DNA of 32,000 bases, taken from Sporosarcina sp. P32b (lineage in GTDB: Bacteria; Bacillota; Bacilli; Bacillales_A; Planococcaceae). This document shows, in pieces, positions 3,945-29,529 of the stretch; position 1 is the stretch's first letter, and each line of letters opens with the position of its first letter. Where the stretch lies: positions 104,205 to 136,204 of the forward strand of contig NZ_PDZB01000002.1 of NCBI RefSeq assembly GCF_002743335.1, given 5' to 3'. The position numbers and the translations under genes are program-made. Below the pieces are notes generated by a model. That model had not been told where the DNA came from, did not search any database, and saw nothing but the letters and a program-made list of their open reading frames with translations.

Positions 3945-4748
3945 ATGAGAAGAATGCTAGTGCTAGGTCTCGTCTTTTCATTGTTCTTAGCAGGGTGCCA
4001 GGCCCCATTCAGCAAAAAAGAGACGACGCTTGCGGAACGTGATACCGTTGCGTTCGATCCGTTTATTGTGCCAGAAACTTTTATCCCAAAACGTGTGAAC
4101 GTCTTAGGGCTAGGTGATTCATTGACACAAGGAGTCGGCGATGAACGTAAAGAAGGCGGATATTTCGGCCGTTTGACGTCGGACATGGAACAATGGAAAG
4201 GCATTATGGAAGTGGACGCCGTGAATTTAGCGAAACGCGGACGGCGCAGCGACCAGTTTTTAAAGCAATTGCAAGATGAAGACGTACAAGAAGCGATCAT
4301 TCAGGCAGATTATATCGTCTTTACGATCGGTGGCAATGACATCATGAAAGTCGTCAAAGGGAACTTCATGCAGATGAAAATGTCTGATTTCTATAAGGCG
4401 CTCGGTAAATTCGAAAATAGAATTGAAGAGTTGTTCGAGATTTTGCGTCTGTATAACCCCGATGCACCGATTATCGTGGCGGGTCTTTACAATCCGTTCT
4501 CCGTCGTAACGGACGAGGTACAGGAGTTCGAAGACATTATCGCTGACTGGAACCGCTCAATTGAAGAACAAGTGGAACAAGACGGCATGGCTTGCTTTGT
4601 TCCGGTAAAAGATTTATTTAATTCGAATGAAAACCTGGTTTATCACACAGACTTCTTCCATCCTAATAGTAAAGGATATGATTTGATGGAAAAGCGTTTT
4701 GTAAGAGAAATTAAAAGCTGTTCAGCGGTTGACCTGGAAGTGGAGTGA
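3945..4748 (+). CDS. ypmR: SGNH/GDSL hydrolase lipoprotein (YpmR-like)
   Basis: Lipobox LFLAGC. GDSL block LGLGDSLTQGVG. GGND and DxxHP (FFHPNSKGY) blocks. Confidence 0.8.
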   Translation: MRRMLVLGLVFSLFLAGCQAPFSKKETTLAERDTVAFDPFIVPETFIPKRVNVLGLGDSLTQGVGDERKEGGYFGRLTSDMEQWKGIMEVDAVNLAKRGRRSDQFLKQLQDEDVQEAIIQADYIVFTIGGNDIMKVVKGNFMQMKMSDFYKALGKFENRIEELFEILRLYNPDAPIIVAGLYNPFSVVTDEVQEFEDIIADWNRSIEEQVEQDGMACFVPVKDLFNSNENLVYHTDFFHPNSKGYDLMEKRFVREIKSCSAVDLEVE

Positions 4749-5329
4749 AGTACAATATGAATATTTGGAAAGTAGCGTTTTTCAGCCTGGCAGGAATAGT
4801 GGCAGCGGCGCTCGTGGGAGTAATTATCCTCATCAGTGGTGCTACCGCTTCTCCCCCCCTACCGGAAGATAAAGAGGCAAAAGGGGAAGGCTATACTTTG
4901 GCACTCAATACAACCAAAGTGAATTTTGAAGGAATAGCAAACACATATATTAGAAAAGCGGTAAAAGGCAAGTTGCCAGTGGAATTAGAAATGCGCGACG
5001 ATGTATTGTTAACGTCTGAACTTACGGTGTTCTCGCATACATTACCGCTTGCCATGCATTTTGATCCCATCGTACGAAAAGATGGAAACTTAATTCTCAA
5101 ACAATCGTCCATGGAATTAGGACAATTGAATGTACCTCCTTCTACGGTATTGAAATTATTGAAGAGTTCAGTTGAGCTGCCAAAATGGATGGTCGTTCGA
5201 CCGAAAGAAGAAGAAATTTTCATCGATTTAAAAGACTTGCCGATCTCGGGAGACGTCCAAGTGAAGGCAAAAGAAGTGAATTTAGCACAAGATGAGATTA
5301 TATTGGAAGTATTGATACCGAAAAACTAA
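4745..5329 (+). CDS. ypmS: YpmS-like (DUF2140) membrane-anchored protein
   Basis: Single N-terminal TM helix (VAFFSLAGIVAAALVGVIILI). Overlaps the ypmR stop. The start could instead be the ATG at 4757. Confidence 0.65.
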   Translation: MKYNMNIWKVAFFSLAGIVAAALVGVIILISGATASPPLPEDKEAKGEGYTLALNTTKVNFEGIANTYIRKAVKGKLPVELEMRDDVLLTSELTVFSHTLPLAMHFDPIVRKDGNLILKQSSMELGQLNVPPSTVLKLLKSSVELPKWMVVRPKEEEIFIDLKDLPISGDVQVKAKEVNLAQDEIILEVLIPKN

Positions 5330-5342
5330 GGGGGCAATTACT

Positions 5343-5873
5343 ATGACAACACAACTCGCAACTTTCGCAGGCGGATGCTTCTGGTGCATGGTCAAGCCGT
5401 TCGACCAATACGACGGAGTACATTCCGTAACGAGTGGTTATACTGGAGGACATACCATCAATCCAACGTACAAAGAAGTTTGTTCCAATACAACGGGTCA
5501 CCGAGAAGCTGTAGAGATCGAATTCGACGATAGCGTCATCAGTTATGAAGAATTATTGACTGTTTTCTGGCAAGTAATCGATCCTACTGACGCAGGCGGC
5601 CAATTCCATGATCGTGGTGAATCGTATAAGTCAGCGATCTACACACACTCGGACGAGCAACAACAAGCAGCAGAACAATCGAAGCAAGCTTTACAAGACA
5701 GCGGCAAGTTTAGCGCACCGATTGTGACAGATATTTTCCCAGCGGAAGTATTCTATCCAGCTGAAGAATATCACCAGCAGTATTATGAAAAGAACCCGGA
5801 TCACTACGCGCGTTACACTGTCGGATCAGGTCGTGCAGGATTTATCGAAGAAAATTGGGGGAATCGTTCATGA
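5343..5873 (+). CDS. msrA: Peptide methionine-S-sulfoxide reductase
   Basis: GGCFWC active-site motif, [22 protein letters not shown]. Confidence 0.93.
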
Positions 5874-6295
5874 AAAAAGACTTACGTACTGAATTAACAG
5901 AGATGCAATATCATGTGACGCAAGAAAGCGGAACAGAACCACCGTTTCGTAATGAATATGATGCACACTACGAAGACGGAATCTATGTAGACATCGTATC
6001 AGGCAAACCGTTATTCAGCTCGAACGATAAATACGACGCAGGTTGCGGATGGCCAAGCTTCACGAAGCCAATCGAAGCCGTAGAAGTAACCGAGCATTTC
6101 GATACAGCTCACGGTATGCGCCGCACGGAAGTACGCAGTAAGACAGCGGATTCTCACTTAGGACATGTATTTCCTGACGGACCAACAGAACAAGGCGGGT
6201 TACGTTATTGTATCAACTCCGCTGCATTGCGCTTCGTTCCAGTGAGTGACCTAGAAAAAGAAGGCTATGAAGAATACAAAGGACTATTTGAGTGA
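5870..6295 (+). CDS. msrB: Peptide methionine-R-sulfoxide reductase
   Basis: [16 protein letters not shown] and RYCINS motifs. ATG at 5870 overlaps the msrA stop (ATGA) with GGGGGA upstream. The track ORF start at 5855 is less likely. Confidence 0.92.
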
Positions 6296-6550: not shown

Positions 6551-6579
6551 TTGCATCTCGCCATTATTCACTGTATGAT
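6551..6579 (+). promoter_or_regulatory. Candidate sigma-A promoter of deoD
   Basis: TTGCAT (6551-6556), 17-nt spacer, TATGAT (6574-6579), about 35 nt upstream of the deoD start. Confidence 0.5.
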
Positions 6580-6613
6580 AATAACAAATTAGTGAAAAGA
6601 GGCTGAAAAAAAG

Positions 6614-7318
6614 ATGAGCATACATATTGATGCAAAACCAGGCGATATCGCAGAAACAGTTCTTCTTCCGGGAGACCCATTGCGCGCGAAGTATATCGCA
6701 GAAACTTTTTTAGAGGACGTCGTACAGTATAACGAAGTACGTAATATGTTTGGCTTTACAGGAACATACAAAGGCAAACGCATTTCCGTACAAGGTACTG
6801 GGATGGGCGTTCCATCTATTTCTATCTACGTAACCGAGTTAATGCAGGAGTTTGGCGTTCAAAAATTGATTCGCGTTGGAACATGCGGTGCGATTCAAAA
6901 AGACGTGAAAGTACGGGACGTTATCTTGGCACAAGGTGCGACAACAAATTCTTCACTAAACGACGTTACATTCGGCCCGATTCGTTTTGCGCCGATTGCG
7001 AACTTTGATTTATTGATGAAAGCGTATAATGCAGGGAAAGAAAAAGGCTTGCATTTACAAGTAGGAAACGTCTATACAGAAGATTTCTTCTATAATGAAG
7101 ACGCACAGCATGAAAAACTAGCGCGTCACGGCGTATTGGCTGTGGAAATGGAAGCTGCAGCACTGTATACACTAGCGGCTCGCTATGGCCGTCAAGCACT
7201 AGCTGTCCTAACAGTTAGTGACCACATCCTTACAGGAGAGATTACGACTCCTGAAGAGCGTCAAACGACATTCAATGAGATGATCGAAGTTGCGCTAGAC
7301 GCAGCAATTGCTGACTAA
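6614..7318 (+). CDS. deoD: Purine nucleoside phosphorylase, DeoD type
   Basis: 234 aa. [45 protein letters not shown]. Confidence 0.95.
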
Positions 7319-8954: not shown

Positions 8955-9854
8955 ATGATCGATGTATATTTACTCAGCGGCTTTCTCGGAAGCGGTAAGA
9001 CATCACTACTCGTTAATCTGGTAGACCAGGTAAAGAAATCAGGAAGACAACCAGCTGTTCTAATGAATGAATTCGGAGAACTGAATATCGACAGTCAAAT
9101 CGTCGAGGAAGCAGGAGAGGTTCCGTTAAAGGAATTACTAAACGGCTGTATATGCTGTACGGGTGCGGAATCTACAGAGGCACAATTACAAGGCTTACTA
9201 GCAGATTATCCGGAGATTGACGTACTGTTCATTGAAACAACAGGTGCTGCTCACCCTGTAGAAGCGTTAGACGCCGTTTACTCGCCGTTATTCGCAGAGA
9301 AACTAGACGTCAAGGGAATTGTTACTGTAGTGGACGCCAAGCGCTGGATCGACCGTGATAAGCTGTCGCCTCGTATACAGGCTTTATTCCTCGAACAAGT
9401 TCGCCACGCACACTTCATGGTGCTCAATAAGACGGATTTGCTGACAGACAACCAATTGGCGTTCGTGACGATGCAAGTGACGCAATTTAATAGTTACGCA
9501 CCGCTCGTCCAGACCGTGAACGCGAAAGTCGATTTCAGCTATATCGAGAAGATGGTCAATGTGGAAGCACCCAAGCAGCCGGTCGCAACAGGTAGTGGAT
9601 TACCACTTGCATCAAAGGTGTTGGCGTTTGATACACCGATCAACCAACAACATTTTGAAGACTGGGTGCGGACATTACCAGACAGCGTCTACCGGATGAA
9701 AGGCTATATCCAACTAGAAGGTTCTCGGTACTCGCATTTATTCCAATATGCATATGGCATGGTCAACTGGATACCTGAATATATGCAAATACCGTCTAAA
9801 TTAGTGATCATCGGAGAGCAACTCACCGACATTGAATATACGCCAAAAAACTAG
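8955..9854 (+). CDS. COG0523 / CobW-family G3E GTPase (putative metallochaperone)
   Basis: Walker A GFLGSGKTS, CxCC motif GCICCTG, ETTG, NKTD. The ATG at 8955 gives the canonical N-terminus; the track start is 8925. Confidence 0.85.
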   Translation: MIDVYLLSGFLGSGKTSLLVNLVDQVKKSGRQPAVLMNEFGELNIDSQIVEEAGEVPLKELLNGCICCTGAESTEAQLQGLLADYPEIDVLFIETTGAAHPVEALDAVYSPLFAEKLDVKGIVTVVDAKRWIDRDKLSPRIQALFLEQVRHAHFMVLNKTDLLTDNQLAFVTMQVTQFNSYAPLVQTVNAKVDFSYIEKMVNVEAPKQPVATGSGLPLASKVLAFDTPINQQHFEDWVRTLPDSVYRMKGYIQLEGSRYSHLFQYAYGMVNWIPEYMQIPSKLVIIGEQLTDIEYTPKN

Positions 9855-10032
9855 TTGTCAATAGCTTTCTATTGTTAATAGTCTTCTCTACTGGATAAGG
9901 TTGCTAATTACATCGTTCTCAGACTCTCATTCCATAGCTTTCTAGAGTTCATTGGACAAATTGGTAGGTTTGACCAAAATCTCTCCTTTTCTTTGACGTT
10001 ATGCTAGGTCACGTAGAAAAGGAGGGACCAAG

Positions 10033-10686
10033 ATGAAAAAACCTTTATCACTCATCTTATTAAGCTCAGCTATTTTATTGCCTACACATGCAGCAGAGGC
10101 AAGCACGACAAATCAGGTGAAAACACACACCTATACGTGGAATGTATCGGATCAGCAGGTGTACACGTATTACTTTGGTAACTATCAGTACCAGAAGCCA
10201 CAACAACGTCCGGTTGCGAAACCGACACCACCTGCACAACAACCAACTCAGCCAAACCAACCAGTGGAGAAACCACAAACAGACAAGCCGGCACAACAAA
10301 CAGCGAATGTGTCTGCAACAGAGCAAGCCGTACTCGATTTGACGAATGCGGAACGTACGAAGGCAGGACTCAAGCCGTTGCAGATCGATGCAGCCTTGCA
10401 AAAGTCCGCAAAGCAGAAATCAGCCGATATGGCAGCGAACAACTATTTCTCTCATACGAGCCCGACATACGGTTCACCGTTTGATCAGATGAAACAGAAT
10501 GGTGTTACATATAGTTCGGCAGCCGAGAATATCGCGATGGGTCAGCGCAGTGCACAGGATGTCGTGACAGCTTGGATGAATTCAGCTGGACACCGTCAAA
10601 ATATCCTAACGCCTGGGTTTACGCATATCGGTATCGGTTATGATGCGAATGGACACTATTGGACACAGCAGTTTATACAGAAGTAA
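10033..10686 (+). CDS. ykwD: Secreted CAP/SCP (PR-1-like) domain protein, YkwD-like, with P/Q-rich linker
   Basis: Signal peptide. Low-complexity segment QKPQQRPVAKPTPPAQQPTQPNQP. CAP domain NAERTKAGLKPL...YFSHTSP...GENIAMG-like...GHRQNIL. Confidence 0.85.
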   Translation: MKKPLSLILLSSAILLPTHAAEASTTNQVKTHTYTWNVSDQQVYTYYFGNYQYQKPQQRPVAKPTPPAQQPTQPNQPVEKPQTDKPAQQTANVSATEQAVLDLTNAERTKAGLKPLQIDAALQKSAKQKSADMAANNYFSHTSPTYGSPFDQMKQNGVTYSSAAENIAMGQRSAQDVVTAWMNSAGHRQNILTPGFTHIGIGYDANGHYWTQQFIQK

Positions 10687-10696
10687 AGCTAGTTAG

Positions 10697-10727
10697 GCTA
10701 ACGGAGTGATTTCCGTTAGCTTTTTTT
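10697..10727 (+). terminator. Rho-independent terminator of the CAP-domain gene
   Basis: GCTAACGGA (10697-10705) pairs with TCCGTTAGC (10712-10720). T7 run at 10721-10727. Confidence 0.85.
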
Positions 10728-10990
10728 AATGGGGAGAGTTAGAGACTGCATGATTTCCGTTGTAGAAGTTCAAGAGAGTAGTTGAGACTGATAGAGATGC
10801 GAGGGGTAATGAGCGGATACAGGTTAGTATAGAGCGCTTGACGTGCAGTATGAGCGGTTGTGGACTTTGATAGAGCGGTTGCCTCGTATCATAGAGCACT
10901 TCACGTTGACCATAGAGCGGATACAGATGAACTATGAGCGCGTTAGACGAATGAATGAGCATAACTTGCATGGCTCTCATTCACTTCAGA
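10728..10990 (+). repeat. Copy 1 of a dispersed intergenic element with 21-bp-phased AT(A)GAGCG boxes
   Basis: GAGC boxes start at 10811, 10832, 10852, 10873, 10894, 10915, 10936 and 10957 (spacings 21,20,21,21,21,21,21). A GAGA variant sits at 10794. The last ~55 nt are roughly 85-90% identical by eye to 28342-28395. Confidence 0.85.
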
Positions 10991-10993
10991 CAC

Positions 10994-11028
10994 AAAAAAG
11001 GCCAATGGAATCAAAACTCCATCAGCCT
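10994..11028 (-). terminator. Rho-independent terminator of the MATE gene
   Basis: Imperfect hairpin at 11000-11028 (GGCCAATGGA...TCCATCAGCCT). A-run at 10994-10999 gives a U-tract on the minus strand. Confidence 0.65.
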
Positions 11029-11040
11029 GTAACCAACTCA

Positions 11041-12396
11041 TTATTCCACTTCACGATACCTATTCTGTATAAACCGTAACCTAAACGACAGAATCACCGC
11101 ACCTACCGATAGACCAACTATGAGACCAACCCAGTATCCGTATGCGCCTAGCTCCGTATAGCGGGCGAGTGCGAATCCTGTAGGCAACCCAATGAGCCAG
11201 AATGACACGACACCGACTAGGAATGTCATCGTTACGTCCTTGTAGCCACGTAACGCACCTTGGATTGGCGCTTGCACTGCGTCCGATAGCTGGAAGAGTG
11301 CGGCATAGATGAAGAAGTGCACGGCTAGTGTAATAATCGCTGTGTCCGTCGTATACATAGAAGCAATCGACTCACGGAACATCAGTAAAATGAATATGGA
11401 TAAGAAACTGAAAACCACAGCGAACGCTATGCCGAGATACGTATACTCGCGCGCGTCCTTCGTTTTATTCGCACCAATTGATTGACCGACTAGTATCGTT
11501 GTACCCATCGAGACGCTTAACGGCACCATATAGAGGAGAGACGTGAAATTGAGCGCGATCTGGTGAGCCGAGATGACTTGTGCGGTATAACTGCTCATTA
11601 ATAATGTGACGACAGAAAAGATACTCGTTTCTACGAATATGGATAATCCGATCGGCACGCCAATGAGTAAAATTTCTTTCCATTTGCGGAAAGAGATTCG
11701 TTGCCATCCACTAAACAGCGTAAACTCTTTAAAGTGGCGGGATGACCAAGCGATTAGCACCGCGATGAAGAACACGAGCCAGTAGGTGAATCCGGATGCA
11801 TACCCAGCGCCAGCACCACCTAGTTCTGGAAAACCGAAGTTACCGAAAATCAATAAATAGTTCAATGCGATATTAATGGGTGCAGATAACAGAATGATAA
11901 ACATTGAGACACGGGTTGCACCGAGTGCGTCAAAGAATGAACGCAGAACAGTGTAGGCCATCAACGGCACCAATCCAATGCTCATACCCGTCAGATAGGC
12001 GGACGCTACTTCTATTACCGGTGCATCCAGTGGCATTCTCGTAATAGCGGGTAACACGACAAAGTGGATCAACACGAAAATGATTGCTGAAAGAGCGAGA
12101 GATACGTATAATGCTTGCTGGACAGTCGGACGGACATCGCTTTTATTCTTCGCACCGATTTGCTGTGCGATAATAGGAGTCAGGCCCATCAGAATTCCCG
12201 AAAGGCCGGTATAGACTGGTATCCAGAAGGAACTGCCGATGGTCACGCCTGCTAAGTGGAACGTGTCGTAGCGCCCTGTCATGAGAATATCGAAGAACGA
12301 CATCAGATAAAGCGCGACTTGCGTAATCACAATGGGAATCATAATCTTAATAAAAATCGATGTTTTTTGTTGCAAAGGTTTCGTTACAGTAGTCAT
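11041..12396 (-). CDS. MATE family multidrug/toxic-compound efflux transporter
   Basis: About 451 aa from the ATG at 12396 (GAGGAA 9 nt upstream). 12 TM-like segments, typical MATE N-terminus MIPIVITQVALYLMSFFDILMTG. The track ORF extends to 12540 but would overlap the divergent gene. Confidence 0.88.
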   Translation of the reverse strand: MTTVTKPLQQKTSIFIKIMIPIVITQVALYLMSFFDILMTGRYDTFHLAGVTIGSSFWIPVYTGLSGILMGLTPIIAQQIGAKNKSDVRPTVQQALYVSLALSAIIFVLIHFVVLPAITRMPLDAPVIEVASAYLTGMSIGLVPLMAYTVLRSFFDALGATRVSMFIILLSAPINIALNYLLIFGNFGFPELGGAGAGYASGFTYWLVFFIAVLIAWSSRHFKEFTLFSGWQRISFRKWKEILLIGVPIGLSIFVETSIFSVVTLLMSSYTAQVISAHQIALNFTSLLYMVPLSVSMGTTILVGQSIGANKTKDAREYTYLGIAFAVVFSFLSIFILLMFRESIASMYTTDTAIITLAVHFFIYAALFQLSDAVQAPIQGALRGYKDVTMTFLVGVVSFWLIGLPTGFALARYTELGAYGYWVGLIVGLSVGAVILSFRLRFIQNRYREVE

Positions 12397-12481
12397 AGTT
12401 TTGATTTCCTCTACTAATTTTTTCGTTTTGACTAGTGTAGCATGAAATATAGTAGGCAACGCATAGGGAAGGATGGAATGA

Positions 12482-13555
12482 ATGAAACAACCGGTAGTCG
12501 TTTTAACAGGTGGCGGTACAGCAGGACACGTATCCGTCAATCAAGCATTAATTCCTGTATTTTTGGGTAAAGGGTATAGTGTGCATTATATTGGTTCTCA
12601 TGAAGGTATTGAAAAAGAGTTGATAGGAGAAGGTCATCCGGAAGTGGTCTATCACGCAATACAAAGTGGTAAATTGCGTCGGTATTTCTCAATGAAGAAT
12701 TTTACGGATCCATTTCGTGTTGGTGCAGGGACGCTACAAGCGCTCGCTATTTTGCGGAAACTGAAGCCGGAGATCATCTTTTCTAAAGGAGGTTTCGTTT
12801 CGGTACCCGTTGTCATGGCAGCGAAACTTGCAAATGTACCTGTTGTTGTCCATGAATCAGACGTGACGCCAGGACTTGCGAATAAATTGGCATTGCCGTT
12901 CGCATCCCAAATCTTTACTGTCTTTGAACAGACGTTGCAATATGTGCCTACAGCAAAATCTGAATGCACAGGCCCGATTATTCGTCCTGAGCTGTTTATG
13001 GGCGATCGGCAAGAGGGATTACGCAGAACAGGTTTGAATTCCGAAAAGCCGGTATTCATTATCATGGGAGGTAGTCAAGGCTCTGCCGTGTTGAATGAAG
13101 CGGTGCGCAATGAATTACCCGCGTTGCTACAGAAGTATCAGATCATTCATTTATGTGGTAAAGGGAATGTGGTAGAAGGTCTTTCAGTGGCGGGGTACGT
13201 ACAGTATGAATATGTCACCGATGAATTGCCTGATTTGCTAGCGGTTGCTGATTATGCGGTTTCGCGTGCGGGGTCGAATGCAATTTTCGAATTGCTTGCG
13301 ATCCATAAGCCGATGTTGCTTGTTCCGCTTGCCGCCTCAAAGAGCCGTGGTGATCAAATATTGAATGCAGAATACTTCGCTTCTAAGGGATTGGCATTAC
13401 AAATAGAAGAAGAGCAATTCGAAGTGCAGTCTGTTACAGAACAATTTGATGAACTCGTGAAGGAAAAAAATCGATTGCTGTCGAATATTGAAAAGACGAC
13501 AGAACCGAAGACACCTGAAAAGATGGCAGAATTGATTTTATCGTTCCAAAAATGA
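12482..13555 (+). CDS. MurG-family GT28 glycosyltransferase (UDP-GlcNAc transferase paralogue, not in a dcw cluster)
   Basis: 357 aa. N-terminal G-loop LTGGGTAGHV. C-terminal GGSQGS...RAGSNAIFE...GDQILNA is typical of MurG. Confidence 0.75.
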   Translation: MKQPVVVLTGGGTAGHVSVNQALIPVFLGKGYSVHYIGSHEGIEKELIGEGHPEVVYHAIQSGKLRRYFSMKNFTDPFRVGAGTLQALAILRKLKPEIIFSKGGFVSVPVVMAAKLANVPVVVHESDVTPGLANKLALPFASQIFTVFEQTLQYVPTAKSECTGPIIRPELFMGDRQEGLRRTGLNSEKPVFIIMGGSQGSAVLNEAVRNELPALLQKYQIIHLCGKGNVVEGLSVAGYVQYEYVTDELPDLLAVADYAVSRAGSNAIFELLAIHKPMLLVPLAASKSRGDQILNAEYFASKGLALQIEEEQFEVQSVTEQFDELVKEKNRLLSNIEKTTEPKTPEKMAELILSFQK

Positions 13556-13741: not shown

Positions 13742-16552
13742 ATGTCGAACAATGTGGATTCCCATCGTTCCCCGTATGCTAATTTTTCGGGTCCAAACCT
13801 TGGGTATGTAATGGAAATGTACGATCTGTTCAAAACAGATCAAGATGCAGTAGATCCTGATTTAGCAGAGCTATTCAGGAATTTTGGTGCGCCTCAGATG
13901 GATGAGTCAGGTCAAGAGGCAGTTATAGCGCAAGGTTCCCAAACGGATTTGCGTAAAGTTCTTGCTGTTTATTCTTTACTTGAAGCTATTCGTTCTTATG
14001 GACATCTTGCAGCAGACATTTATCCATTAAACGATCGACCTAAAGATACATCCCGTCTTGAACTGTCATATCATGGATTGACAGAAAGCGATCTGGTCGG
14101 ATTGCCAGCAACTTTGTTCTTGAAAAATGTTCCAGCGACAGTTGAAAATGGATTAGATGCAATGAATTATTTGAAGTCTCTTTATACAGGCTCCATCGCA
14201 TATGAATTCTCTCACTTGATCGATGAAACAGAACGTAACTGGATTCAATCAAAAATTGAAAACGGCGACGTACAGTCAAAAATGCAAGAAGACGAGAAAA
14301 AACAACTTCTTGAGCGTTTGACGAAAATTGAAGGCTTTGAAAAATTCATTCACCGTACATTCGTAGGAGCGAAACGTTTCTCCATCGAAGGTGTGGACAC
14401 ATTAGTCGTCTTAATTGATGAATTAATGCGTCTTTCCGAAGATGCGAAAATGGAAAAAGTGCTAATCGGCATGGCTCACCGTGGACGTCTGAATGTATTG
14501 ACGCACAACTTAAACAAACCATACGAAATGATGTTTGCTGAATTCGCAGGCGTACCTGCTTCACCGTTCTTACCAAAAGACGGATCTCTTGAAGTAACGC
14601 GCGGCTGGTTCGGTGACGTGAAATACCATATGGGTGCTCTTCATAAAGGTAAGTCTGGGATGAATCGCTTCCTTGCGTATAACCCATCTCACCTAGAAGT
14701 AGTAAACCCTGTAATTACGGGTCAGACTCGTGCTGCCCAAGAAAACACGGACAACCCAGGTATTCCACAACAAGATACAAATAAAGCATACGCGATTTTA
14801 GTACACGGTGATGCAGCGTTCCCTGGACAAGGTATCGTTCCAGAATCATTTAACTACTCTCGTGTTCGCGGTTTTAGAACAGGTGGATCGGTCCATGTCA
14901 TTGCCAACAACACGATTGGCTTTACGACGGAATATTATGATTCCCGTTCTACACACTATGCATCTGATCCAGCAAAAGGCTATGAAGTGCCTGTATTCCA
15001 CGTGAATGCAGATCACCCAGAAGAAGTACTAGCTGTTGCAAAACTGGCATTTGAATATCGCCAGGCGTTCGGCAAAGACGTACTAATCGACTTGATCGGT
15101 TACCGTCGTTACGGACACAACGAAATGGATGAGCCACTAGTGACAAATCCAGTGATGTACCACGAAATCCATAAACACCCTACAGTTCGTGAAATTTACG
15201 GACAGCGTCTAGTAGAGCAAAAGCTTCTAACAGACGAAGAGGTTAAAGAAATGGACAAGTCGGTGATCGCAACGATGCAAGAAGCGTACGATCACGTAAA
15301 AGAAGAATCAGCAGACGCTCCGGAAATTTCTAATGCAACACCGGAAGTGGTACAAGCTGGACTTCCACGTGATCTTGAAACAGGGGTAGCGGAAGATCGC
15401 CTTCGTCAAATGAACGATGAGCTATTGACGTATCCAGAAGAATTCACTGTCTTCAATAAATTGGATAAAATCTTGAAGCGTCGCCTAGAGCCGTTTAAAG
15501 GTAAAGGGAAAATCGACTGGGCACATGCTGAGCAATTGGCATTCGGTTCAATCATTCAAGACGGTAAGCCAATCCGTATTTCTGGACAAGATATCCAGCG
15601 CGGTACATTTGCACAGCGTCATTTAGTATTACATGATGAAAAAACAGGTGAAGAACTTGTTCCATTGCATCATATTAGCGGATCTACTGCTTCATTCGTG
15701 GCGTATAACAGCCCACTGTCCGAAGCAGGTATCGTAGGATATGAATTCGGTTATAACTTAGAAGAAGACAAAACGATGTCGATCTGGGAAGCACAATACG
15801 GTGACTTCTCAAACATGGCACAAGTCATGTTCGACCAGTTCGTATCTTCAAGTTATTCGAAGTGGGGTCAGCAATCTGGCCTTGTGCTATTGTTGCCACA
15901 CGCATTTGAAGGACAAGGACCAGAACACTCCAGTTCTCGCATTGAGCGTTTCCTACAACTTTGTGGAGAAAACAACTGGACAGTCGCGAATATCTCCAGT
16001 GCAGCAAACTACTTCCACGTATTGCGTCGCCAGTCGAAAATTCTCGGCAGCGAAGCAGAGCGTCCGTTAGTAATTGCAACGCCTAAGTCTTTACTTCGTC
16101 ACCCACTAGTTGGAGCAGACGTTGAAGACTTAACGGAAGGTCACTTCAAGACAGTTCTTGAGCAACCTGGTACAGGAACTAAACCTGAAAAAGTAAAAAA
16201 GATCTTGTTCGCAAGCGGTAAGATGGCAATTGACTTGGCTGAGAAGATCAAAGACGGTGAAGGATTCGACTACTTGCACGTAATCCGTGTAGAGCAGCTA
16301 TATCCATTCCCATCCGACAAAATCAAAGAAATCGTTGCTCGTTTCCCGAAAGCAAAAGATTTAGTATGGGTTCAGGAAGAGCCGAAGAACATGGGTACAT
16401 GGTCATTCGCTTATCCGTTCCTAGAAAAACTAGCTGACGGCAAAGACATTTCTTATGTCGGTCGTATTAAACGCTCAAGTCCTTCTGAAGGCGACGGCGC
16501 ATCTCATAAAAAAGAACAAAACCGAATCATTGAAGAAGCTTTGAAAAAGTGA
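13742..16552 (+). CDS. odhA: 2-oxoglutarate dehydrogenase E1 component
   Basis: About 936 aa. MAHRGRLNVL, HGDAAFPGQG, GYRRYGHNE, LLLPHAFEGQGPEHSS. ATG at 13742 with GGAGG 9 nt upstream; track start 13724. Confidence 0.95.
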   Translation: MSNNVDSHRSPYANFSGPNLGYVMEMYDLFKTDQDAVDPDLAELFRNFGAPQMDESGQEAVIAQGSQTDLRKVLAVYSLLEAIRSYGHLAADIYPLNDRPKDTSRLELSYHGLTESDLVGLPATLFLKNVPATVENGLDAMNYLKSLYTGSIAYEFSHLIDETERNWIQSKIENGDVQSKMQEDEKKQLLERLTKIEGFEKFIHRTFVGAKRFSIEGVDTLVVLIDELMRLSEDAKMEKVLIGMAHRGRLNVLTHNLNKPYEMMFAEFAGVPASPFLPKDGSLEVTRGWFGDVKYHMGALHKGKSGMNRFLAYNPSHLEVVNPVITGQTRAAQENTDNPGIPQQDTNKAYAILVHGDAAFPGQGIVPESFNYSRVRGFRTGGSVHVIANNTIGFTTEYYDSRSTHYASDPAKGYEVPVFHVNADHPEEVLAVAKLAFEYRQAFGKDVLIDLIGYRRYGHNEMDEPLVTNPVMYHEIHKHPTVREIYGQRLVEQKLLTDEEVKEMDKSVIATMQEAYDHVKEESADAPEISNATPEVVQAGLPRDLETGVAEDRLRQMNDELLTYPEEFTVFNKLDKILKRRLEPFKGKGKIDWAHAEQLAFGSIIQDGKPIRISGQDIQRGTFAQRHLVLHDEKTGEELVPLHHISGSTASFVAYNSPLSEAGIVGYEFGYNLEEDKTMSIWEAQYGDFSNMAQVMFDQFVSSSYSKWGQQSGLVLLLPHAFEGQGPEHSSSRIERFLQLCGENNWTVANISSAANYFHVLRRQSKILGSEAERPLVIATPKSLLRHPLVGADVEDLTEGHFKTVLEQPGTGTKPEKVKKILFASGKMAIDLAEKIKDGEGFDYLHVIRVEQLYPFPSDKIKEIVARFPKAKDLVWVQEEPKNMGTWSFAYPFLEKLADGKDISYVGRIKRSSPSEGDGASHKKEQNRIIEEALKK

Positions 16553-18208: not shown

Positions 18209-18257
18209 GGGATGGGTAGCGCGGGAACTATTGTAGTTTGAAGTTTTAAACTTGAAT

Positions 18258-18456
18258 AACTGGTGAGAACTGTGCGGCTTACGCTCAATAATTCGTCTAC
18301 GTGCTCATAATTCATGCGTATTCGCTCTATGGTCACTGCCAACCGCTCTATTAGGTGCCATATCCGATCATACGATACGCTAAGCGCTCTATCGCTGATT
18401 GTATCCGCTCATTGTCCGCAGACTCACTAGCGGTCCTGACCTATATCTTGAAATTA
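18258..18456 (-). repeat. Copy 2 (inverted) of the 21-bp-phased AT(A)GAGCG element
   Basis: On the + strand, GCTC boxes end at 18286, 18306, 18327, 18348, 18369 (GATC variant), 18389 and 18410 (spacings 20,21,21,21,20,21). The reverse complement aligns box for box with copies 1 and 3. Confidence 0.85.
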
Positions 18457-18492: not shown

Positions 18493-19670
18493 TTTTGTGA
18501 TTCTTCATATACAGCGAGTAAACGTGTCTTCAGATCTTGTTCCATTCTAGCGATCTCAGTCTCGGCAGCTTTGCGTTTCGCGCGGCCATCTGCTTGGATC
18601 AGCAACGTTTCTTCGATCGTCTGGATCAAGTTCTCTTGTGTTGTTTTCAATGTATCGATCTCAATAATACCTTTTTCGTTTTCTTTAGCTGTCTCAATGC
18701 TATTCACTTTCAACATTTCGGAGTTACGAAGCAATAAATCGTTCGTCGTCTTCGTGACGAGCTTCTGTGACTCCACAGCCTTTTGCTGACGGTTGAGTGT
18801 CAAAGCAATCGCAATCTGGTTCTTCCAAAGTGGAATCGCCGTCATAATGGAAGCCTGGATCTTTTCAGCCAGTGTTTGGTTCGTTTGTTGGATCATCCGA
18901 ATCTGCGGAGCACTCTGAATCGTGATCTGGCGTGATAATTGCAAGTCATACAGGCGTTTTTCTAAACGATCCACAAATTGTGCCATATCATTGACTTCTT
19001 GAACCATCATTTGATCATCCGATTGTTGTGCTTTTTTATGCAGTTCTGGAATAATTGTACTATTGATTTCATCAATCTTTAATTCAGCTGCTGCGATATA
19101 GACGTTCAATGCTTGGAAGTAAGTTTTATTTTGCTCATACAAATTGTCCAGCATGCGGACGTCTTCCATTAAGCCTCGTTTGGAATGCTCTAGTTGAACG
19201 CTTATTTTATCGACTTGTGTGCCGAGTTTTTCGTATTTTGTCATGATTTCTTTAATCGGGCGAGTGGCTTTGTTAAATAAACGACTAAGGCCGGATTTCT
19301 TTTTATCCGAAAGATCATCTGTATCGATTTCGGATAGTTTGGCCATTAATTCATTCAGTACATCGCCGACAGGGCCTATATCTTTGCCTTGAACATGATC
19401 CAGCATTTTGTGAGAGAAGTTGGATAGTTCGTTTTGCGCATTGGCTCCGTAGGAAATGACGGCTTCGTAATTACCGACAGGAATCTGTGAAGCCAATTGT
19501 CTTGCTTTATCCTGTTCTTCAGGTGTTAATCGATCAATTAATTTAGTAGGTGCAGCTGTGTCCGACAGCGAATTTTCCATCTCTTTCGGAAGCAAACTAG
19601 CATCCATGTCGAATGGATTGTCGAGCAAATCGTCCACTGATTTTTCTTGTAGTGTGTTTTTATCTGTCAT
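18480..19670 (-). CDS. yaaN: TelA-family toxic anion resistance protein (YaaN-like)
   Basis: About 396 aa from the ATG at 19670 (AAAGGGGA 8 nt upstream). The conserved region LTPEEQDKARQLASQI...ISYGANAQNELSNFS matches the TelA family. The track ORF extends to 19736. Confidence 0.88.
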   Translation of the reverse strand: MTDKNTLQEKSVDDLLDNPFDMDASLLPKEMENSLSDTAAPTKLIDRLTPEEQDKARQLASQIPVGNYEAVISYGANAQNELSNFSHKMLDHVQGKDIGPVGDVLNELMAKLSEIDTDDLSDKKKSGLSRLFNKATRPIKEIMTKYEKLGTQVDKISVQLEHSKRGLMEDVRMLDNLYEQNKTYFQALNVYIAAAELKIDEINSTIIPELHKKAQQSDDQMMVQEVNDMAQFVDRLEKRLYDLQLSRQITIQSAPQIRMIQQTNQTLAEKIQASIMTAIPLWKNQIAIALTLNRQQKAVESQKLVTKTTNDLLLRNSEMLKVNSIETAKENEKGIIEIDTLKTTQENLIQTIEETLLIQADGRAKRKAAETEIARMEQDLKTRLLAVYEESQNRPS

Positions 19671-20903: not shown

Positions 20904-20930
20904 AAACGTAAGTAAATTAATCGAACGACC

Positions 20931-21013
20931 GTATGCTAAGTGATTCACCTATTACAAAAGGGATCGGCGTCGTCGGCAACTTTTGTAATACGTGAATTTT
21001 TTTGTATGCTAAG
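20931..21013 (+). promoter_or_regulatory. csp leader structure: terminator-like 18-bp hairpin plus U-run, bracketed by 10-nt direct repeats
   Basis: Arms 20943-20960 and 20980-20997 pair at 17/18 positions. T7 run at 20997-21003. GTATGCTAAG occurs at 20931-20940 and 21004-21013. Confidence 0.6.
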
Positions 21014-21056
21014 GTTCGTGTATTAAAGTATTTATATTTTTTTTGGAGGTAATCGA

Positions 21057-21257
21057 ATGAAACAAGGTACAGTGAAATGGTTTAACTCAGAAAAGGGCTT
21101 CGGTTTTATCGAAGTTGACGGAGAAGAAGACATCTTTGTGCACTTCTCAGCAATCCAAGGCGACGGATTCAAATCTCTTGACGAAGGTCAGCAGGTTGAA
21201 TTTGAAGTTGTCGAAGGTAACCGTGGTCTACAAGCAGCTAACGTTGTTAAAATCTAA
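21057..21257 (+). CDS. csp: Cold-shock protein (CspA family)
   Basis: 66 aa. RNP1 KGFGFI and RNP2 VFVHF motifs. RBS GGAGGT. Confidence 0.97.
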
Positions 21258-21265
21258 ACCACTAG

Positions 21266-21997: not shown

Positions 21998-22362
21998 AAT
22001 GAAAAACCTCCTTTTACTTTCTGTTATTCCCTTAATAGTGGAAGCTATTCATAGCGAATAAAAAATAAGGTAGTGCAATCGATTTGTAAATCGCATCGAT
22101 CGAGTGGACACTCAAAACATCTTGTACATTTAATTCGATTTCTAACCAGAAAGATTCAGTATAGATCTCTATTTTTATTGTGAAAAGTCTCAAAGTATAT
22201 GATTTATTTACGAGTATCCAAACAAATCCATCTATAAACATATTATATAGTTCTAACGAAACCTGGTTCCAAATAATCCCTGTTTCCTACTTTAATCCTC
22301 GCATCTCATTATTTGGTATACTATACATAATGCACGTACAGCAATCAAGGAGGGGAAGAACA

Positions 22363-22725
22363 ATGAAGAGTACATTTGTAATTCGTCAGAGAGCCTTTTT
22401 AAAGCTCTATATGCTCAACAAGGCAGAAGAAGGGAACTTGTATGGCTTACAAATATTAGATGACCTTCTAGATCATTTCAGAGACCTTGGGTATCGTCCG
22501 ACTAAGTCTGAAGTATACAAGTCTCTACATGACTTACTCAACGACGGTCTTATCGTCAGACATCCAATCCATAAGCAGGGGACAGAGATGCAGACACTTT
22601 ACATCTACCGCATTGGTGATAAGGAGAAGGTCAAAGCTTATAAAGATACGATAAAGTTTGAGATTGATCGATCTATCTCATTACTTAATAGAGCACTGCA
22701 AGACAATTATTCGCAGAAGAGATAA
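22363..22725 (+). CDS. PadR-like winged-helix transcriptional regulator
   Basis: 120 aa from the ATG at 22363 (AAGGAGGGG upstream). NLYGLQILDDL...SEVYKSLHDLLNDGLIVR fits the PadR wHTH pattern. The track ORF start at 22180 lies in AT-rich non-coding-looking sequence. Confidence 0.6.
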   Translation: MKSTFVIRQRAFLKLYMLNKAEEGNLYGLQILDDLLDHFRDLGYRPTKSEVYKSLHDLLNDGLIVRHPIHKQGTEMQTLYIYRIGDKEKVKAYKDTIKFEIDRSISLLNRALQDNYSQKR

Positions 22726-28159: not shown

Positions 28160-28416
28160 TGTTGTGGGAGTATGAAAGTTCGGGATTTCATTGAAATGAA
28201 TGCTAGACGTGGTGATGCTTGAGATTTTTAAGTTCAAAATTATAGAGACTCGAAGGCTAATGAGCGGATATTGGTCTTGATAGAGCAGTTAAGTTAAAAG
28301 TATGAGCGATTACGGATCGTGATAGAGCGGTTGACGATGAACATAGGGCGGATACGCATGAACTATGAGCGCTTATACGAATGAATGAGCGAAACCCGTG
28401 CTGTCTTTCACTAGTT
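28160..28416 (+). repeat. Copy 3 of the 21-bp-phased AT(A)GAGCG element
   Basis: Boxes start at 28245 (GAGA), 28262, 28283, 28304, 28325, 28346 (GGGC variant), 28367 and 28387. Spacings are 17,21,21,21,21,21,20. The 17-bp first gap matches copy 1. Confidence 0.85.
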
Positions 28417-28444
28417 GCATAAAAACGATCAACCGTGTCTTCCC

Positions 28445-29489: not shown

Positions 29490-29529
29490 TCTAGATATAA
29501 CTAGTTATGTCTAGGCATATCTAGTTATA
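29490..29529 (+). promoter_or_regulatory. Tandem 20-bp direct repeat (candidate operator) at the modA transcription start
   Basis: TCTAGATATAACTAGTTATG (29490-29509) and TCTAGGCATATCTAGTTATA (29510-29529) are 16/20 identical. Each unit contains CTAG-N6-CTAG with TATA/ATAT cores. Confidence 0.55.

Follow-up and report, generated by a model that had tools for sequence, protein, structure and literature searches.

GAGCG boxes repeated at a 21-bp phase in intergenic spacers of the Sporosarcina ureae group: a candidate protein-binding DNA array

Closest described systems

Direct repeats bound in helical phase are well documented for plasmid iterons, which measure 17-22 bp, number 2-7 per origin and are bound cooperatively by Rep proteins in a manner that depends on helical phase, the WH2 domain of the pi protein contacting GAG (PMC4980987). 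Analysis of a 32,000-nucleotide stretch of Sporosarcina sp. P32b DNA (hereafter the window) revealed an intergenic element of similar geometry. Like the iteron and inc arrays of R6K, F, P1, pPS10 and RK2, which are served by winged-helix Rep proteins, it consists of direct repeats in one orientation, about 21-22 bp from centre to centre and on one helix face; iterons also have a GAG-containing core, up to seven repeats and an inverted partial repeat after them. Iterons are alike over essentially the whole length of the repeat, whereas identity between different units within a copy of the element is 99% in the core, 43% in the flank and 26% (random level) in the spacer. The rep gene of an iteron array is adjacent or on the same replicon, whereas the element is chromosomal, occurs in four copies and has no rep gene adjoining any of them. 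Iteron origins carry a DnaA box and an AT-rich region, the equivalent of which is weakly suggested in the element. A second comparison is with parC of R1 and the 20-bp repeats of pSK41, tandem repeats on which a small dimeric protein assembles cooperatively into a wrapped or superhelical complex. These centromeres lie directly upstream of a parMR/parAB operon, whereas no partition genes were found beside any copy of the element.

Among interspersed repeats, the Staphylococcus aureus repeat STAR likewise forms intergenic box arrays with poorly conserved spacers, is stable in locus within lineages, differs between related species and often lies in 3' regions behind genes (PMC3532100; bioRxiv 10.1101/2023.05.16.541063). 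The element shares the stability of locus, its four loci being orthologous across species of the S. ureae clade. The STAR box is a GC-rich 14-mer (TNTGTTGNGGCCCN), whereas the box of the element is WWWGAGCGSWT; STAR spacers of ~40 nt carry a covarying stem-loop, whereas those of the element are 9-12 nt, in 21-bp phase and without RNA structure; and STAR has ~100 repeats per genome against ~4 loci here. The REP/BIME, BOX, RUP, Correia and MITE-like repeats are also short, non-coding, placed at gene 3' ends or in convergent spacers and variably present among relatives, but they are palindromic or hairpins with terminal inverted repeats (TIRs), whereas the element is a one-orientation tandem without fold signal and of very low copy number. 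Type III toxin-antitoxin RNA repeats and CRISPR were rejected: their repeats are near-identical, of ~36 nt or of at least 23 nt with 26-72 nt spacers, and stand beside a toxin or cas gene, whereas the 21-bp units of the element share only 5-9 nt and have no toxN- or cas-like neighbours.

The RTP-Ter fork trap of Bacillus subtilis resembles the present case in that an RTP gene lies between the copies, which flank the terminus as oriented sites in spacers behind terminators. Ter sites are single and 29-30 bp long, with two ACTAA/ACYAAAT motifs 16 bp apart (PMC3317982), whereas the arrays span 150-190 bp, have another motif and are of mixed polarity.

Searches for relatives were negative in all collections used. 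Nothing related was found by blastn in distant mode among 72,556 plasmids or 50,697 phage records, and a plasmid or phage origin of the sequence was rejected on that result. A genome pattern scan returned Sporosarcina copies only, plus four chance matches; the generic GAGCG-phase pattern gave GC-rich coding repeats only in viral contigs; of two patterns run against metagenomes, one was empty and the other gave unrelated perfect tandem repeats only. In Rfam, nothing reached the gathering threshold for the window or the four loci and nothing was found for copy 1 at E<=10, at which level only two chance-level matches appeared, both outside the array; a known RNA family was rejected accordingly. 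A literature search found nothing on Sporosarcina repeats. As judged from these sequence comparisons, the element matches no described repeat or RNA family, in line with the original prediction.

Known oriented motifs were also considered. A cluster of Chi (AddAB) sites was rejected since the motif is unskewed outside the arrays (strand counts of 20:22 for GAGCGG and 69:76 for GAGCG); the corresponding counts are 145:71 for AGCGG, which is the B. subtilis Chi, and 33:8 for GAAGCGG. The absent strand skew of GAGCGG likewise ruled out a skewed motif that guides FtsK/SpoIIIE.

Anatomy and constraint of the phased array

The element measures about 230-260 bp. Its box follows the consensus (A/T)(A/T)(A/T)GAGCG(G/C/A)(A/T)T and is repeated in a single orientation in 7-9 tandem units of 21 bp; the usual form has seven units, and copy 1 carries one more. 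Features of the window are listed in Table 1.

Table 1. Coordinates of the arrays and neighbouring features in the window.
Feature	Position	Strand	Evidence or remark
CAP-domain gene	10033-10686		Pfam CAP match
CAP-domain gene terminator (intrinsic)	10695..10727 (scan: 10695-10722)	+	terminator scan; 5' boundary of the spacer holding copy 1
84-aa ORF across copy 1	10726-10980	-	by-product of the 21-bp (7-codon) period, no gene
Copy 1, 5' part	10728..10804	+	degenerate boxes GAGAG/GAGAC/GAGAT and terminator-arm copy
Copy 1 array, eight 21-bp units	10805..10975	+	GAGC at 10811, 10832, 10852, 10873, 10894, 10915, 10936, 10957
Copy 1 last box, inverted degenerate box and short tail	10953..10990	+	alignments
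MATE gene terminator, convergent	10999..11028	-	terminator scan; 3' boundary of copy 1
MATE gene	11041-12540	-	Pfam
Copy 2, seven units	18229..18438	-	nhmmer E=1e-56; cores in order GAGCG, GAGCG, GATCG, GAGCG, GAGCG, GAGCA, GAGCG
Ter-like site, upstream of rtp	22252-22274		core match
rtp (RTP homologue)	22363-22725		Pfam PF02334; PDB 1f4k E=1e-30
Copy 3, seven units	28240..28430	+	nhmmer E=4e-54; cores in order GAGCG, GAGCA, GAGCG, GAGCG, GGGCG, GAGCG, GAGCG

In copy 1 the GAGC-to-GAGC spacings are 21, 20, 21, 21, 21, 21 and 21 bp. All eight GAGC starts of the original prediction were re-found in place, as were the two flanking terminators and an 11-mer, TGATTTCCGTT, common to the CAP terminator (10707-10717) and the 5' part of the element (10751-10761), where it represents a copy of the terminator arm. 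GAGA-type variants lie upstream of the array at 10734, 10742, 10774, 10784 and 10794. The extra unit of copy 1 is unit 5 (10891-10911), which is missing from the S. ureae orthologue and from the other copies; in units 5 and 8 the core deviates to GAGCA. After the last box comes an inverted partner (GAATGAGC at 10953-10960 and GCTCTCATTC at 10973-10982), and beyond this 7-bp box/anti-box pair no inverted repeats were found within the element. Alignments revealed that in other copies the tail runs on as CTCAC(C/T)AGTTAT(T/C)... and then into ~40 bp of AT-rich DNA.

Loss of the 20-21 bp phase elsewhere in the genome had been named as evidence against a protein array, and all other copies were found to keep it: the phase is 21 bp (occasionally 20) in 9/9 copies examined, and the sole length change is one whole 21-bp unit. 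A parameter-free periodicity test revealed a 10.5-bp harmonic of A/T content in 8/8 copies examined (z 2-13.6). Pairs of the form GAGCG-N15/16-GAGCG are internal to the arrays, with none outside them in ~190 kb (the window and related loci) against ~0.2 expected by chance, our estimate from base composition; the eight phased boxes are thus a real signal. No phased box pairs that would point to an autoregulated partner gene were found in promoters within the same ~190 kb.

The GAGCG core is present in 57-60 of the 61 units, while spacer positions carry ~0.1 bit, and only ~9-12 bp are conserved per 21-bp unit. Comparison of corresponding units between paralogues revealed identities of 99% in the core, 81% in the flank and 56% in the spacer. 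The earlier statement that spacers vary freely is therefore correct between units (26% identity) and incorrect between copies, where each unit position keeps its own spacer (56%). It follows that the element spread as a whole after its units had diverged outside the box. Between orthologues of the window species and S. ureae, core positions are identical at 100/105 and spacers at 69%, whereas four-fold sites of odhA, odhB and the CAP gene are 81% identical (Fisher p=8e-5 against the core). Deviant cores number 8/29 in the window genome and 1/29 in S. ureae (p=0.025), two of the three within-species SNPs in copy 2 fall in cores, and in S. ureae copy 2 even the unit upstream of u1 still has a perfect ATAGAGCGGTTG box. 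Cores are thus constrained in S. ureae and decaying in the window species.

These values bear on the simplest alternative, a functionless minisatellite in which a tandem 21-bp duplication became box-like through uneven mutation or gene conversion. The narrow distribution, the dispensability in some lineages and the gain of one whole unit by copy 1 are in its favour. We regard it as very improbable, since neutral decay cannot leave five positions at 99% beside random neighbours across 61 units and four loci, and core conservation exceeds that of synonymous sites. Divergence between units is also too great for ongoing slippage; for the same reason Tandem Repeats Finder was nearly blind to the arrays and reported only a 2.4-unit fragment of copy 3.

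The preferred reading, to which the sequence gives roughly even support, is a cooperative protein-binding DNA array with its sites on the same helix face. The element would act as double-stranded DNA. Since the boxes recur every two helical turns they would lie on one face, with A/T-rich patches every 10.5 bp, and 7-9 copies of one sequence-specific protein would load cooperatively to form a filament or wrap, in the geometry seen on plasmid iterons or centromere-like repeats. The original prediction of a selected recognition motif and phase, read by a protein, gains from the phase itself, the 10.5-bp harmonic, the missing RNA structure and covariation, and core conservation above the synonymous level; on the other side, no binding protein was found, and no candidate is encoded next to any copy at the four loci. 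The anatomy, the kept phase, the distribution, the lack of a coding or RNA-structure signal and the constraint on the box are direct results of the sequence analysis, whereas protein binding and what it would achieve are our inference. Further points against a binding array are a sense-strand G and purine bias that extends into the spacers and is unexplained by a purely double-strand function, conservation of ~9-12 of 21 bp, unlike classical iterons, confinement to one small clade, and dispensability in some lineages (eroded cores, an insertion sequence in copy 2, a relic in P37).

A more specific form of protein binding would be an orphan iteron-type origin or incompatibility array, an oriV-like cassette that titrates or handcuffs a plasmid or phage Rep from the chromosome. 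Its 7-9 units, 21-bp spacing and GAG-containing core resemble iterons; TGAGnG is a motif of Rep_3 iterons, and unit 7 presumably resembles the R6K iteron. The last unit is followed by the inverted degenerate box, then AGTTAT(T/C)(T/C)AC, then the AT-rich DNA, and this tail sequence is 1-2 mismatches from TTATNCACA, a DnaA-box likeness with weak statistics (p ~0.03-0.05 by our estimate) that represents a single ancestral event. We consider an orphan origin improbable, given four loci without a rep gene, the blank plasmid and phage searches, and spacers that are random between units where classical iterons are conserved over their full length.

Coding, RNA and promoter signals

A conserved translated ORF across the array was looked for in 8 copies, as the original prediction had proposed as a counter-test, and none was found: in most copies stops break every one of the six frames, and the minus-strand frames contain 3-8 stops in the S. 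ureae orthologue and all other copies. The earlier view that copy 1 holds no credible gene stands in that no ORF is conserved; it needs correction in that an 84-aa minus-strand ORF does span the array, unique to copy 1. A coding (heptad) repeat was rejected on these six-frame stops.

Neither strand had a better folding energy than its shuffles (z +0.53 and +0.41). RNAalifold gave -8 and -6 kcal/mol for the two strands; compensatory pairs numbered 0 and 2, and the covariation term was close to zero or unfavourable. The tail CYCTCA pairs with a box, again without covariation. A structured RNA on either strand was ruled out by these results. No conserved promoter signal was found at the three window copies, and the promoter scan found no sigma-70-like promoter at copy 1. 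The scan gave one weak match at copy 2, on the window plus strand and hence the antisense strand of the element, and one at copy 3, on the window plus strand within the gene that precedes the array; neither exceeds the count to be expected from shuffles. Upstream terminators are strong, with 12-13 bp stems and T7 tracts. The suggested role as a protein-sponge RNA finds no support here, given the strong upstream terminators and the lack of promoter and structure.

An RNA-level role could nevertheless arise if read-through or an unrecognised promoter yielded a purine-rich, unstructured RNA whose AUAGAGCG motifs bind or sponge a protein or small RNA. Such a role would agree with the single box orientation and with the richness of the sense strand in purines and G, spacers included (GC skew +0.22 to +0.47). 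The sense RNA folds less than its shuffles do, as would suit single-strand binders, and every copy begins 45-100 bp beyond the terminator of a gene in the same orientation, although only locus 4 is informative in this respect. A precedent is STAR, with box-plus-spacer arrays in staphylococcal 3' UTRs (bioRxiv 10.1101/2023.05.16.541063). We hold it to be highly doubtful: the arrays follow strong terminators, no sense-strand promoter lies upstream of any array and none has a terminator of its own, covariation is absent on either strand, Rfam is blank, and the two-turn spacing and 10.5-bp A/T harmonic are traits of the DNA helix with no obvious RNA meaning. A Rho rut site on the C-rich antisense strand was rejected as a misfit with the 21-nt spacing, with the intrinsic terminators at three sites and with the co-directional locus 4.

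Copies, distribution and the replication terminus

Where three copies had been recognised, the genome was found to have four colinear ones, three of them inside the window and the fourth ~130 kb away at ~262 kb of contig PDYZ01000003.1, the same contig as the window copies; the copy number of ~4 loci is an indirect estimate. All four loci have housekeeping neighbours: CAP/MATE, TelA/odhB, AI-2E/regulator and asp23/nusB (locus 4). Copy 2 follows the TelA (yaaN-like) terminator and looks towards the convergent DUF6501/odhB side. Copy 3 lies downstream of the terminator of an AI-2E transporter gene and abuts the 3' end of a convergent HTH_17/PBP_like regulator gene. No rep, par or transposase gene, and no regulator gene with boxes in its own promoter, adjoins any copy.

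The copies have orthologues in S. ureae, P34 and P2. At the sites examined, the element is missing from four sister species (copies 1 and 2 in each of them, locus 4 in PTS2304 alone), and the copy 1 and copy 2 sites in L011-L014 hold no copy. In Sporosarcina sp. PTS2304 the entire CAP-MATE spacer is one 42-bp bidirectional terminator, i.e. an empty site, and in sister species a different, TIR-bearing repeat occupies the same spacers. Locus 4 of P37, first scored as empty, is a decayed relic of the element. The element is thus confined to one small clade, the S. ureae group.

This distribution could also be the legacy of a selfish non-autonomous mobile or recombining element, its boxes having bound its own transposase, recombinase or Rep and now decaying without host function. 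The empty 42-bp site in PTS2304, the vacant sites in L011-L014 and the different repeat in the same spacers fit such a relic, as do the copying of the element as a whole with positional identity of its units, the erosion in the window species, the relic in P37 and the tolerance of an IS3-family insertion that interrupts copy 2 in one strain (L167). Terminator-like hairpins on both sides of the insert at copy 1 fit it too; clean ends, exact insertion boundaries or a target duplication could be defined neither there nor at locus 4 of P37. We judge a selfish relic unlikely, though deserving weight. As originally noted, no terminal inverted repeats and no transposase were seen at the loci, and neither were a target-site duplication or another mobilising gene. 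The ~4 copies all stand at orthologous sites in species that are 10-12% diverged, and therefore no recent movement is indicated. S. ureae cores (0-1/29 deviant) are far better kept than synonymous sites (p=8e-5), which argues against a dead element. The earlier suggestion of a selfish repeat thus holds as history only, in the presence/absence pattern and lineage decay. In the preferred reading of a protein-binding array, an ancestor of the S. ureae clade would have acquired whole copies of the element in four terminator-proximal spacers flanking the terminus, after which its boxes would have been held constant in S. ureae, eroded in the window species and nearly lost at one P37 site.

Copies 1 to 4 together straddle the replication terminus, as judged from convergence of the leading-strand GC skew: the window copies lie at 104-136 kb, where the leading strand is plus, and locus 4 at 262 kb, where it is minus. 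The sense strand is the leading strand in 3/4 copies, copy 2 being reversed. Between copies 2 and 3 lies rtp, a true RTP homologue (Table 1).

In the window, in S. ureae and in Ureibacillus alike, the Ter core WCTAA-N9-GTWCYAAAT has a single 14/14 match per rtp locus, ~110 bp upstream of the gene. According to one review, only a few Bacillus species have the RTP system (PMC10331603). The occurrence in Sporosarcina and Ureibacillus of an RTP homologue together with a Ter-like site is a by-product of this study that may be of wider interest.

It was asked of these data whether the arrays are extra cis sites for RTP or another terminus factor that pause forks or organise the terminus. Pointing that way are the RTP homologue itself, the four copies around the GC-skew convergence point, and the joint occurrence of rtp and arrays in the S. 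ureae clade with joint absence at these loci from the four sister species, although a co-occurrence drawn from a single clade amounts to one evolutionary event. Within the window, the B. subtilis Ter consensus KMACTAANWNNWCTATGTACYAAATNTTC is matched best (23/29) by the antisense strand of copy 2, but this is no outlier because scores of 22 recur every 15-30 kb, and the arrays score 22-23/29 like background matches. No array position reaches even 12/14 of the Ter core, no arrays were found in the 20 kb examined around Ureibacillus rtp, and array orientations are mixed with respect to fork direction (+,-,+ in the window). We set this reading aside, since the conserved Ter core occurs only upstream of rtp, and give it a slim prospect. 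The earlier guess of a termination-type protein gained appeal from the rtp gene between the copies, but the Ter-like site that matches the B. subtilis consensus core stands upstream of that gene and in none of the arrays.

A related and equally speculative reading, which we would rate as quite improbable, is that the arrays are novel chromosomal cis sites, phased docking platforms that flank the terminus, serve a clade-specific factor and were acquired together with the RTP/Ter trap; such a factor could be RTP itself, binding in a second mode, or another partner. If true, the arrays would act in fork pausing or terminus organisation and would be a Gram-positive counterpart, in role and not in sequence, to matS-type Ter-domain sites.

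If no protein binds, the element would be an ordinary lineage-specific intergenic repeat, of use mainly for marking strains and for illustrating box-plus-spacer repeat evolution. If a protein does load on the arrays as preferred here, they would be rare iteron-like phased platforms on a chromosome, away from an origin or partition operon and clustered at the terminus. The S. ureae group provides a natural comparison set, with boxes intact in S. ureae and P34, eroding in the window species, reduced to a relic in P37 and missing from PTS2304, from which it should be possible to find the partner gene by phyletic profiling.

Structure and composition of the GAGCG arrays

Reading of positions 10500-11200 located the GAGC starts at 10811, 10832, 10852, 10873, 10894, 10915, 10936 and 10957, with spacings of 21, 20, 21, 21, 21, 21 and 21 bp exactly as in the original prediction. 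GAGA-type variants of the box occur 5' of this array (10734-10794). The terminators proposed on either side of copy 1, between the genes for a CAP-domain protein and a MATE transporter, were recovered by a terminator scan, and a promoter scan found no sigma-70-like promoter in the copy-1 region. Phased GAGCG-N15/16-GAGCG pairs were restricted to the arrays in about 190 kb (the window and related loci), so the pattern is far beyond chance and the predicted phased array as a whole is real. Tandem Repeats Finder detected just 2.4 units, in copy 3, because the units have little in common beyond the box.

Analysis of 61 units taken from eight copies revealed (A/T)(A/T)(A/T)GAGCG(G/C/A)(A/T)T as the box motif, the GAGCG core being present in 57-60 of the 61 units and each spacer position carrying about 0.1 bit of information. 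The unit step is 21 bp, the final step is often 20 bp and the mean is about 20.8 bp. A typical element comprises seven units. Upstream of these lie one or two further units that have degenerated (unit 0 of S. ureae copy 2 remains a perfect box), and on the 3' side come a degenerate box in inverted orientation (CYCTCA), the conserved motif AGTTAT(T/C)(T/C)AC and about 40 bp of AT-rich sequence; copy 1 has one additional 21-bp unit. Matching units of S. ureae paralogues share 99% of core, 81% of flank and 56% of spacer positions; for different units inside one copy the values are 99%, 43% and 26%. This comparison indicates that units have positional identity, and hence that the element was copied whole, after its units had diverged everywhere outside the box.

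The repeated 11-mer TGATTTCCGTT (10707-10717 and 10751-10761) was likewise confirmed and is restricted to the window species. In S. ureae, the orthologue of copy 1 lacks the second occurrence, and its terminator stem reads CAATGGA/TCCATTG versus TAACGGA/TCCGTTA in the window species, with compensatory changes. The terminator arm may have been locally duplicated or converted.

Positions of the arrays and other features (in the window unless a fetched locus, L, is named)
Feature	Sequence	Position	Strand or remark
Copy 1	window	10805-10975	+
Intrinsic terminators of copy 1	window	10695-10722; 11028-10999	+; -
Copy 2	window	18229-18438	-, colinear with copy 1
Copy 3	window	28240-28430	+, colinear with copy 1
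Locus 4	L170, window genome	2568-2784	about 262 kb, same contig
Locus 4 relic	L161, P37	9658-10001	asp23-nusB spacer
IS3-family insertion	L167, strain of window species	4532-6075	window equivalent about 18350
Single boxes at asp23 terminator and nusB ribosome-binding region	L004; L160, S. ureae	1877-1887 and 2360-2372; 9475-9500	
Other repeat	L014, GW1-11	6600-7230; 14380-14941	
Other repeat	L013; L012	14412-14878; 14417-15876	
Other repeat	L011; L163, PTS2304	14393-14569; 9044-10001	
Single CAP/MATE terminator	L011, PTS2304	7248-7290	
Paired hairpins and insert	L009, S. ureae; L014, GW1-11	6931-7300; 6561-7272	
rtp gene	window; L009, S. ureae; L135, Ureibacillus thermophilus	22363-22725; 18680-19045; 10001-10369	
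Ter-like site	window; L009; L135	22252-22274; 18569; 9889	window site: TCTAAC-N8-GGTTCCAAAT
Repeat in divergent promoter region	window	29490-29529	
Inverted repeat upstream of cold-shock gene	window	20922-21018	

Distribution, constraint and decay

Contig PDYZ01000003.1 of GCA_002743315.1 matches the window at 100% identity. The window species shares 88-90% DNA identity with S. ureae, which holds copies 1-3 at orthologous sites. Pattern scanning, with each species represented by one genome, returned only S. ureae DSM 2281 (two matches), Sporosarcina sp. P34 and Sporosarcina sp. P2, together with four further matches at chance level; relatives of the element were not found in two metagenome scans and one viral scan. 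Locus 4, a fourth copy between the asp23/yqhY terminator and nusB, is occupied in P34, P2, S. ureae and the window genome. Since the strict pattern returned only copies already known, such pattern scanning puts the probable number of copies in a genome close to four. No copy occupies the sites of copies 1 and 2 in four sister species whose OdhA identity is about 91-92% (PTS2304, S. obsidiansis, GW1-11 and a record labelled Mammaliicoccus sciuri), and the CAP-MATE spacer of PTS2304 is one 42-bp bidirectional terminator. The element has a narrow distribution, and some lineages appear able to dispense with it. Locus 4 is flanked on both sides by single GAGCG(G) boxes, on one side directly 5' of the asp23 terminator (AATGAGCGGTT) and on the other within the ribosome-binding region of nusB (GATGAGCGGTAGAGGAG); these may be chance.

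Comparison of the window species with S. ureae revealed identity at 100 of 105 core positions, at 81% of 4-fold degenerate sites of odhA, odhB and CAP, and at 69% in spacers; cores exceed 4-fold sites (Fisher p=8e-5). All core changes are on the window-species side, deviant cores (GAGCA, GATCG, GGGCG) make up 8 of 29 in the window genome, a higher share than the 1 of 29 found for S. ureae (p=0.025), and of the three SNPs that copy 2 shows within the window species, two fall in cores. These patterns show in-place constraint on the boxes in S. ureae; the constraint looks relaxed in the window species and no longer holds at locus 4 of P37 (CP015027). Here recognisable array spacer fragments remain (CGGTTGTGGATAT, GTGACTG...), the boxes have mutated away and about 180 bp have been lost; the locus is a decayed relic and not an empty site. 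In a strain belonging to the window species (metagenome assembly ERZ25039577), an IS3-family element (genes HTH_28/HTH_21/rve) has inserted into copy 2 between units 3 and 4. With this decay on one side and the constraint in S. ureae on the other, a decaying selfish element is unlikely, and a functionless minisatellite, whose tandem units would have to coexist with such conserved cores, is barely credible.

In sister species, the spacers that correspond to array sites of the S. ureae clade are occupied by another, GC-rich repeat family, whose termini are long and inverted (...CGTTCCAGGCGGACGCGTTC... / ...GAACGCGTCCGCCTGGAACG...) and which has no Rfam match at the gathering threshold. The single CAP/MATE terminator of PTS2304 corresponds to two similar hairpins around an insert, which is the GAGCG element in S. 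ureae and the other repeat in GW1-11. The S. ureae hairpins retain the T-run only (left) and the A-run only (right); in GW1-11 both runs are retained in both copies. The terminator was either duplicated by insertion or rebuilt later.

Replication terminus and neighbouring features

GC skew is positive on the + strand at 104-136 kb of the contig (the window) and on the - strand at 258-265 kb. S. ureae (L160 versus L009) and PTS2304 (L163 versus L011) show this reversal too, and the majority gene orientation also reverses between the odhA and nusB regions, in the sense of converging leading strands. The skew reversal implies that leading strands converge between copy 3 and locus 4, which places the replication terminus within about 120 kb between the odhA and nusB regions, just past the right window end, with the four copies on either side of it.

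The window also encodes a genuine homologue of RTP, the replication terminator protein of B. subtilis (E=1e-30 to PDB 1f4k), part of a system that a review reports as confined to a few Bacillus species (PMC10331603); rtp is missing at this locus from four sister Sporosarcina species. Each rtp locus holds a single 14/14 match to WCTAA-N9-GTWCYAAAT, the core of the B. subtilis Ter consensus, about 110 bp 5' of the gene, a layout shared with S. ureae and Ureibacillus thermophilus that mirrors the autoregulatory Ter site at rtp of B. subtilis (PMC10331603). Within the window, the full Ter consensus of B. subtilis (PMC3317982) is matched best inside copy 2, at 23/29, but scores of 22 are common background. 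Since the Ter core lies upstream of rtp and never inside any array, the arrays are unlikely to be RTP sites and this identity was set aside. A terminus- or RTP-linked site, which the position of the four copies would suit, is very improbable.

A Chi cluster was rejected, GAGCGG having no strand skew outside arrays (20:22). In about 115 kb of leading-strand-oriented sequence (array-masked window, L160, L161 from P37, L163 and L011), AGCGG (145:71) and, more strongly, GAAGCGG (33:8), the Chi sequences of B. subtilis and S. aureus, respectively, are skewed to the leading strand. Sporosarcina Chi is probably GAAGCGG-like.

Two other window features were observed. A 20-bp unit repeated twice (TCTAGACATAACTAGTTATG), also readable as a 10-bp palindromic motif repeated four times, lies in the divergent promoter region of an HTH_17/PBP_like regulator (28445-29398, -) and an ABC transporter operon (from 29558); it probably serves as operator for the regulator. 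A cold-shock-domain gene (about 21058-21258) is closely preceded by an imperfect inverted repeat of 39 nt, with arms 72% complementary and separated by 19 nt, which is probably the structured csp 5' leader.

Identity and proposed function of the element

A coding repeat was rejected, as an 84-aa minus-strand ORF over copy 1 occurs in copy 1 alone and all six frames are interrupted in most copies. With neither a palindrome nor terminal inverted repeats, the element falls outside the REP/BIME, BOX, RUP and MITE-type families. No match was found in any of the collections searched (Rfam, plasmids and phages). Structured RNA was likewise rejected: neither strand folded better than shuffles, and RNAalifold of eight copies gave -8 and -6 kcal/mol; compensatory pairs numbered 0 and 2, and the covariation term was near zero or unfavourable. 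An RNA-level element, very unlikely in our assessment, would draw on the purine- and G-rich sense strand, for which the protein-array reading does not account.

A strong 10.5-bp harmonic marks the A/T content of all eight copies examined (z 2-13.6), and the sole length change seen is one whole unit. Together with the strict two-turn step these are properties of the double helix and fit same-face cooperative loading, in which a sequence-specific protein would load cooperatively on one face of the DNA array. Rep proteins load in this way on 17-22 bp iterons, and a half-turn shift abolishes cooperativity (PMC4980987). We hold the same-face cooperative protein-binding array with about even confidence; all tests run are consistent with the original prediction of such an array, rather than proof of it, and binding, protein and consequence we infer only. 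Iterons and the STAR elements of staphylococci (PMC3532100; bioRxiv 10.1101/2023.05.16.541063) have the closest layouts. Unlike plasmid iterons, the element lacks a neighbouring rep gene, and conservation does not extend along whole units; an orphan iteron-origin or incompatibility array, which would share the spacing, is highly doubtful. Unlike STAR elements, it has neither a STAR box nor a spacer stem-loop. Failing defining features of both, the element is classed as interspersed box-plus-spacer direct-repeat arrays with iteron-like geometry.
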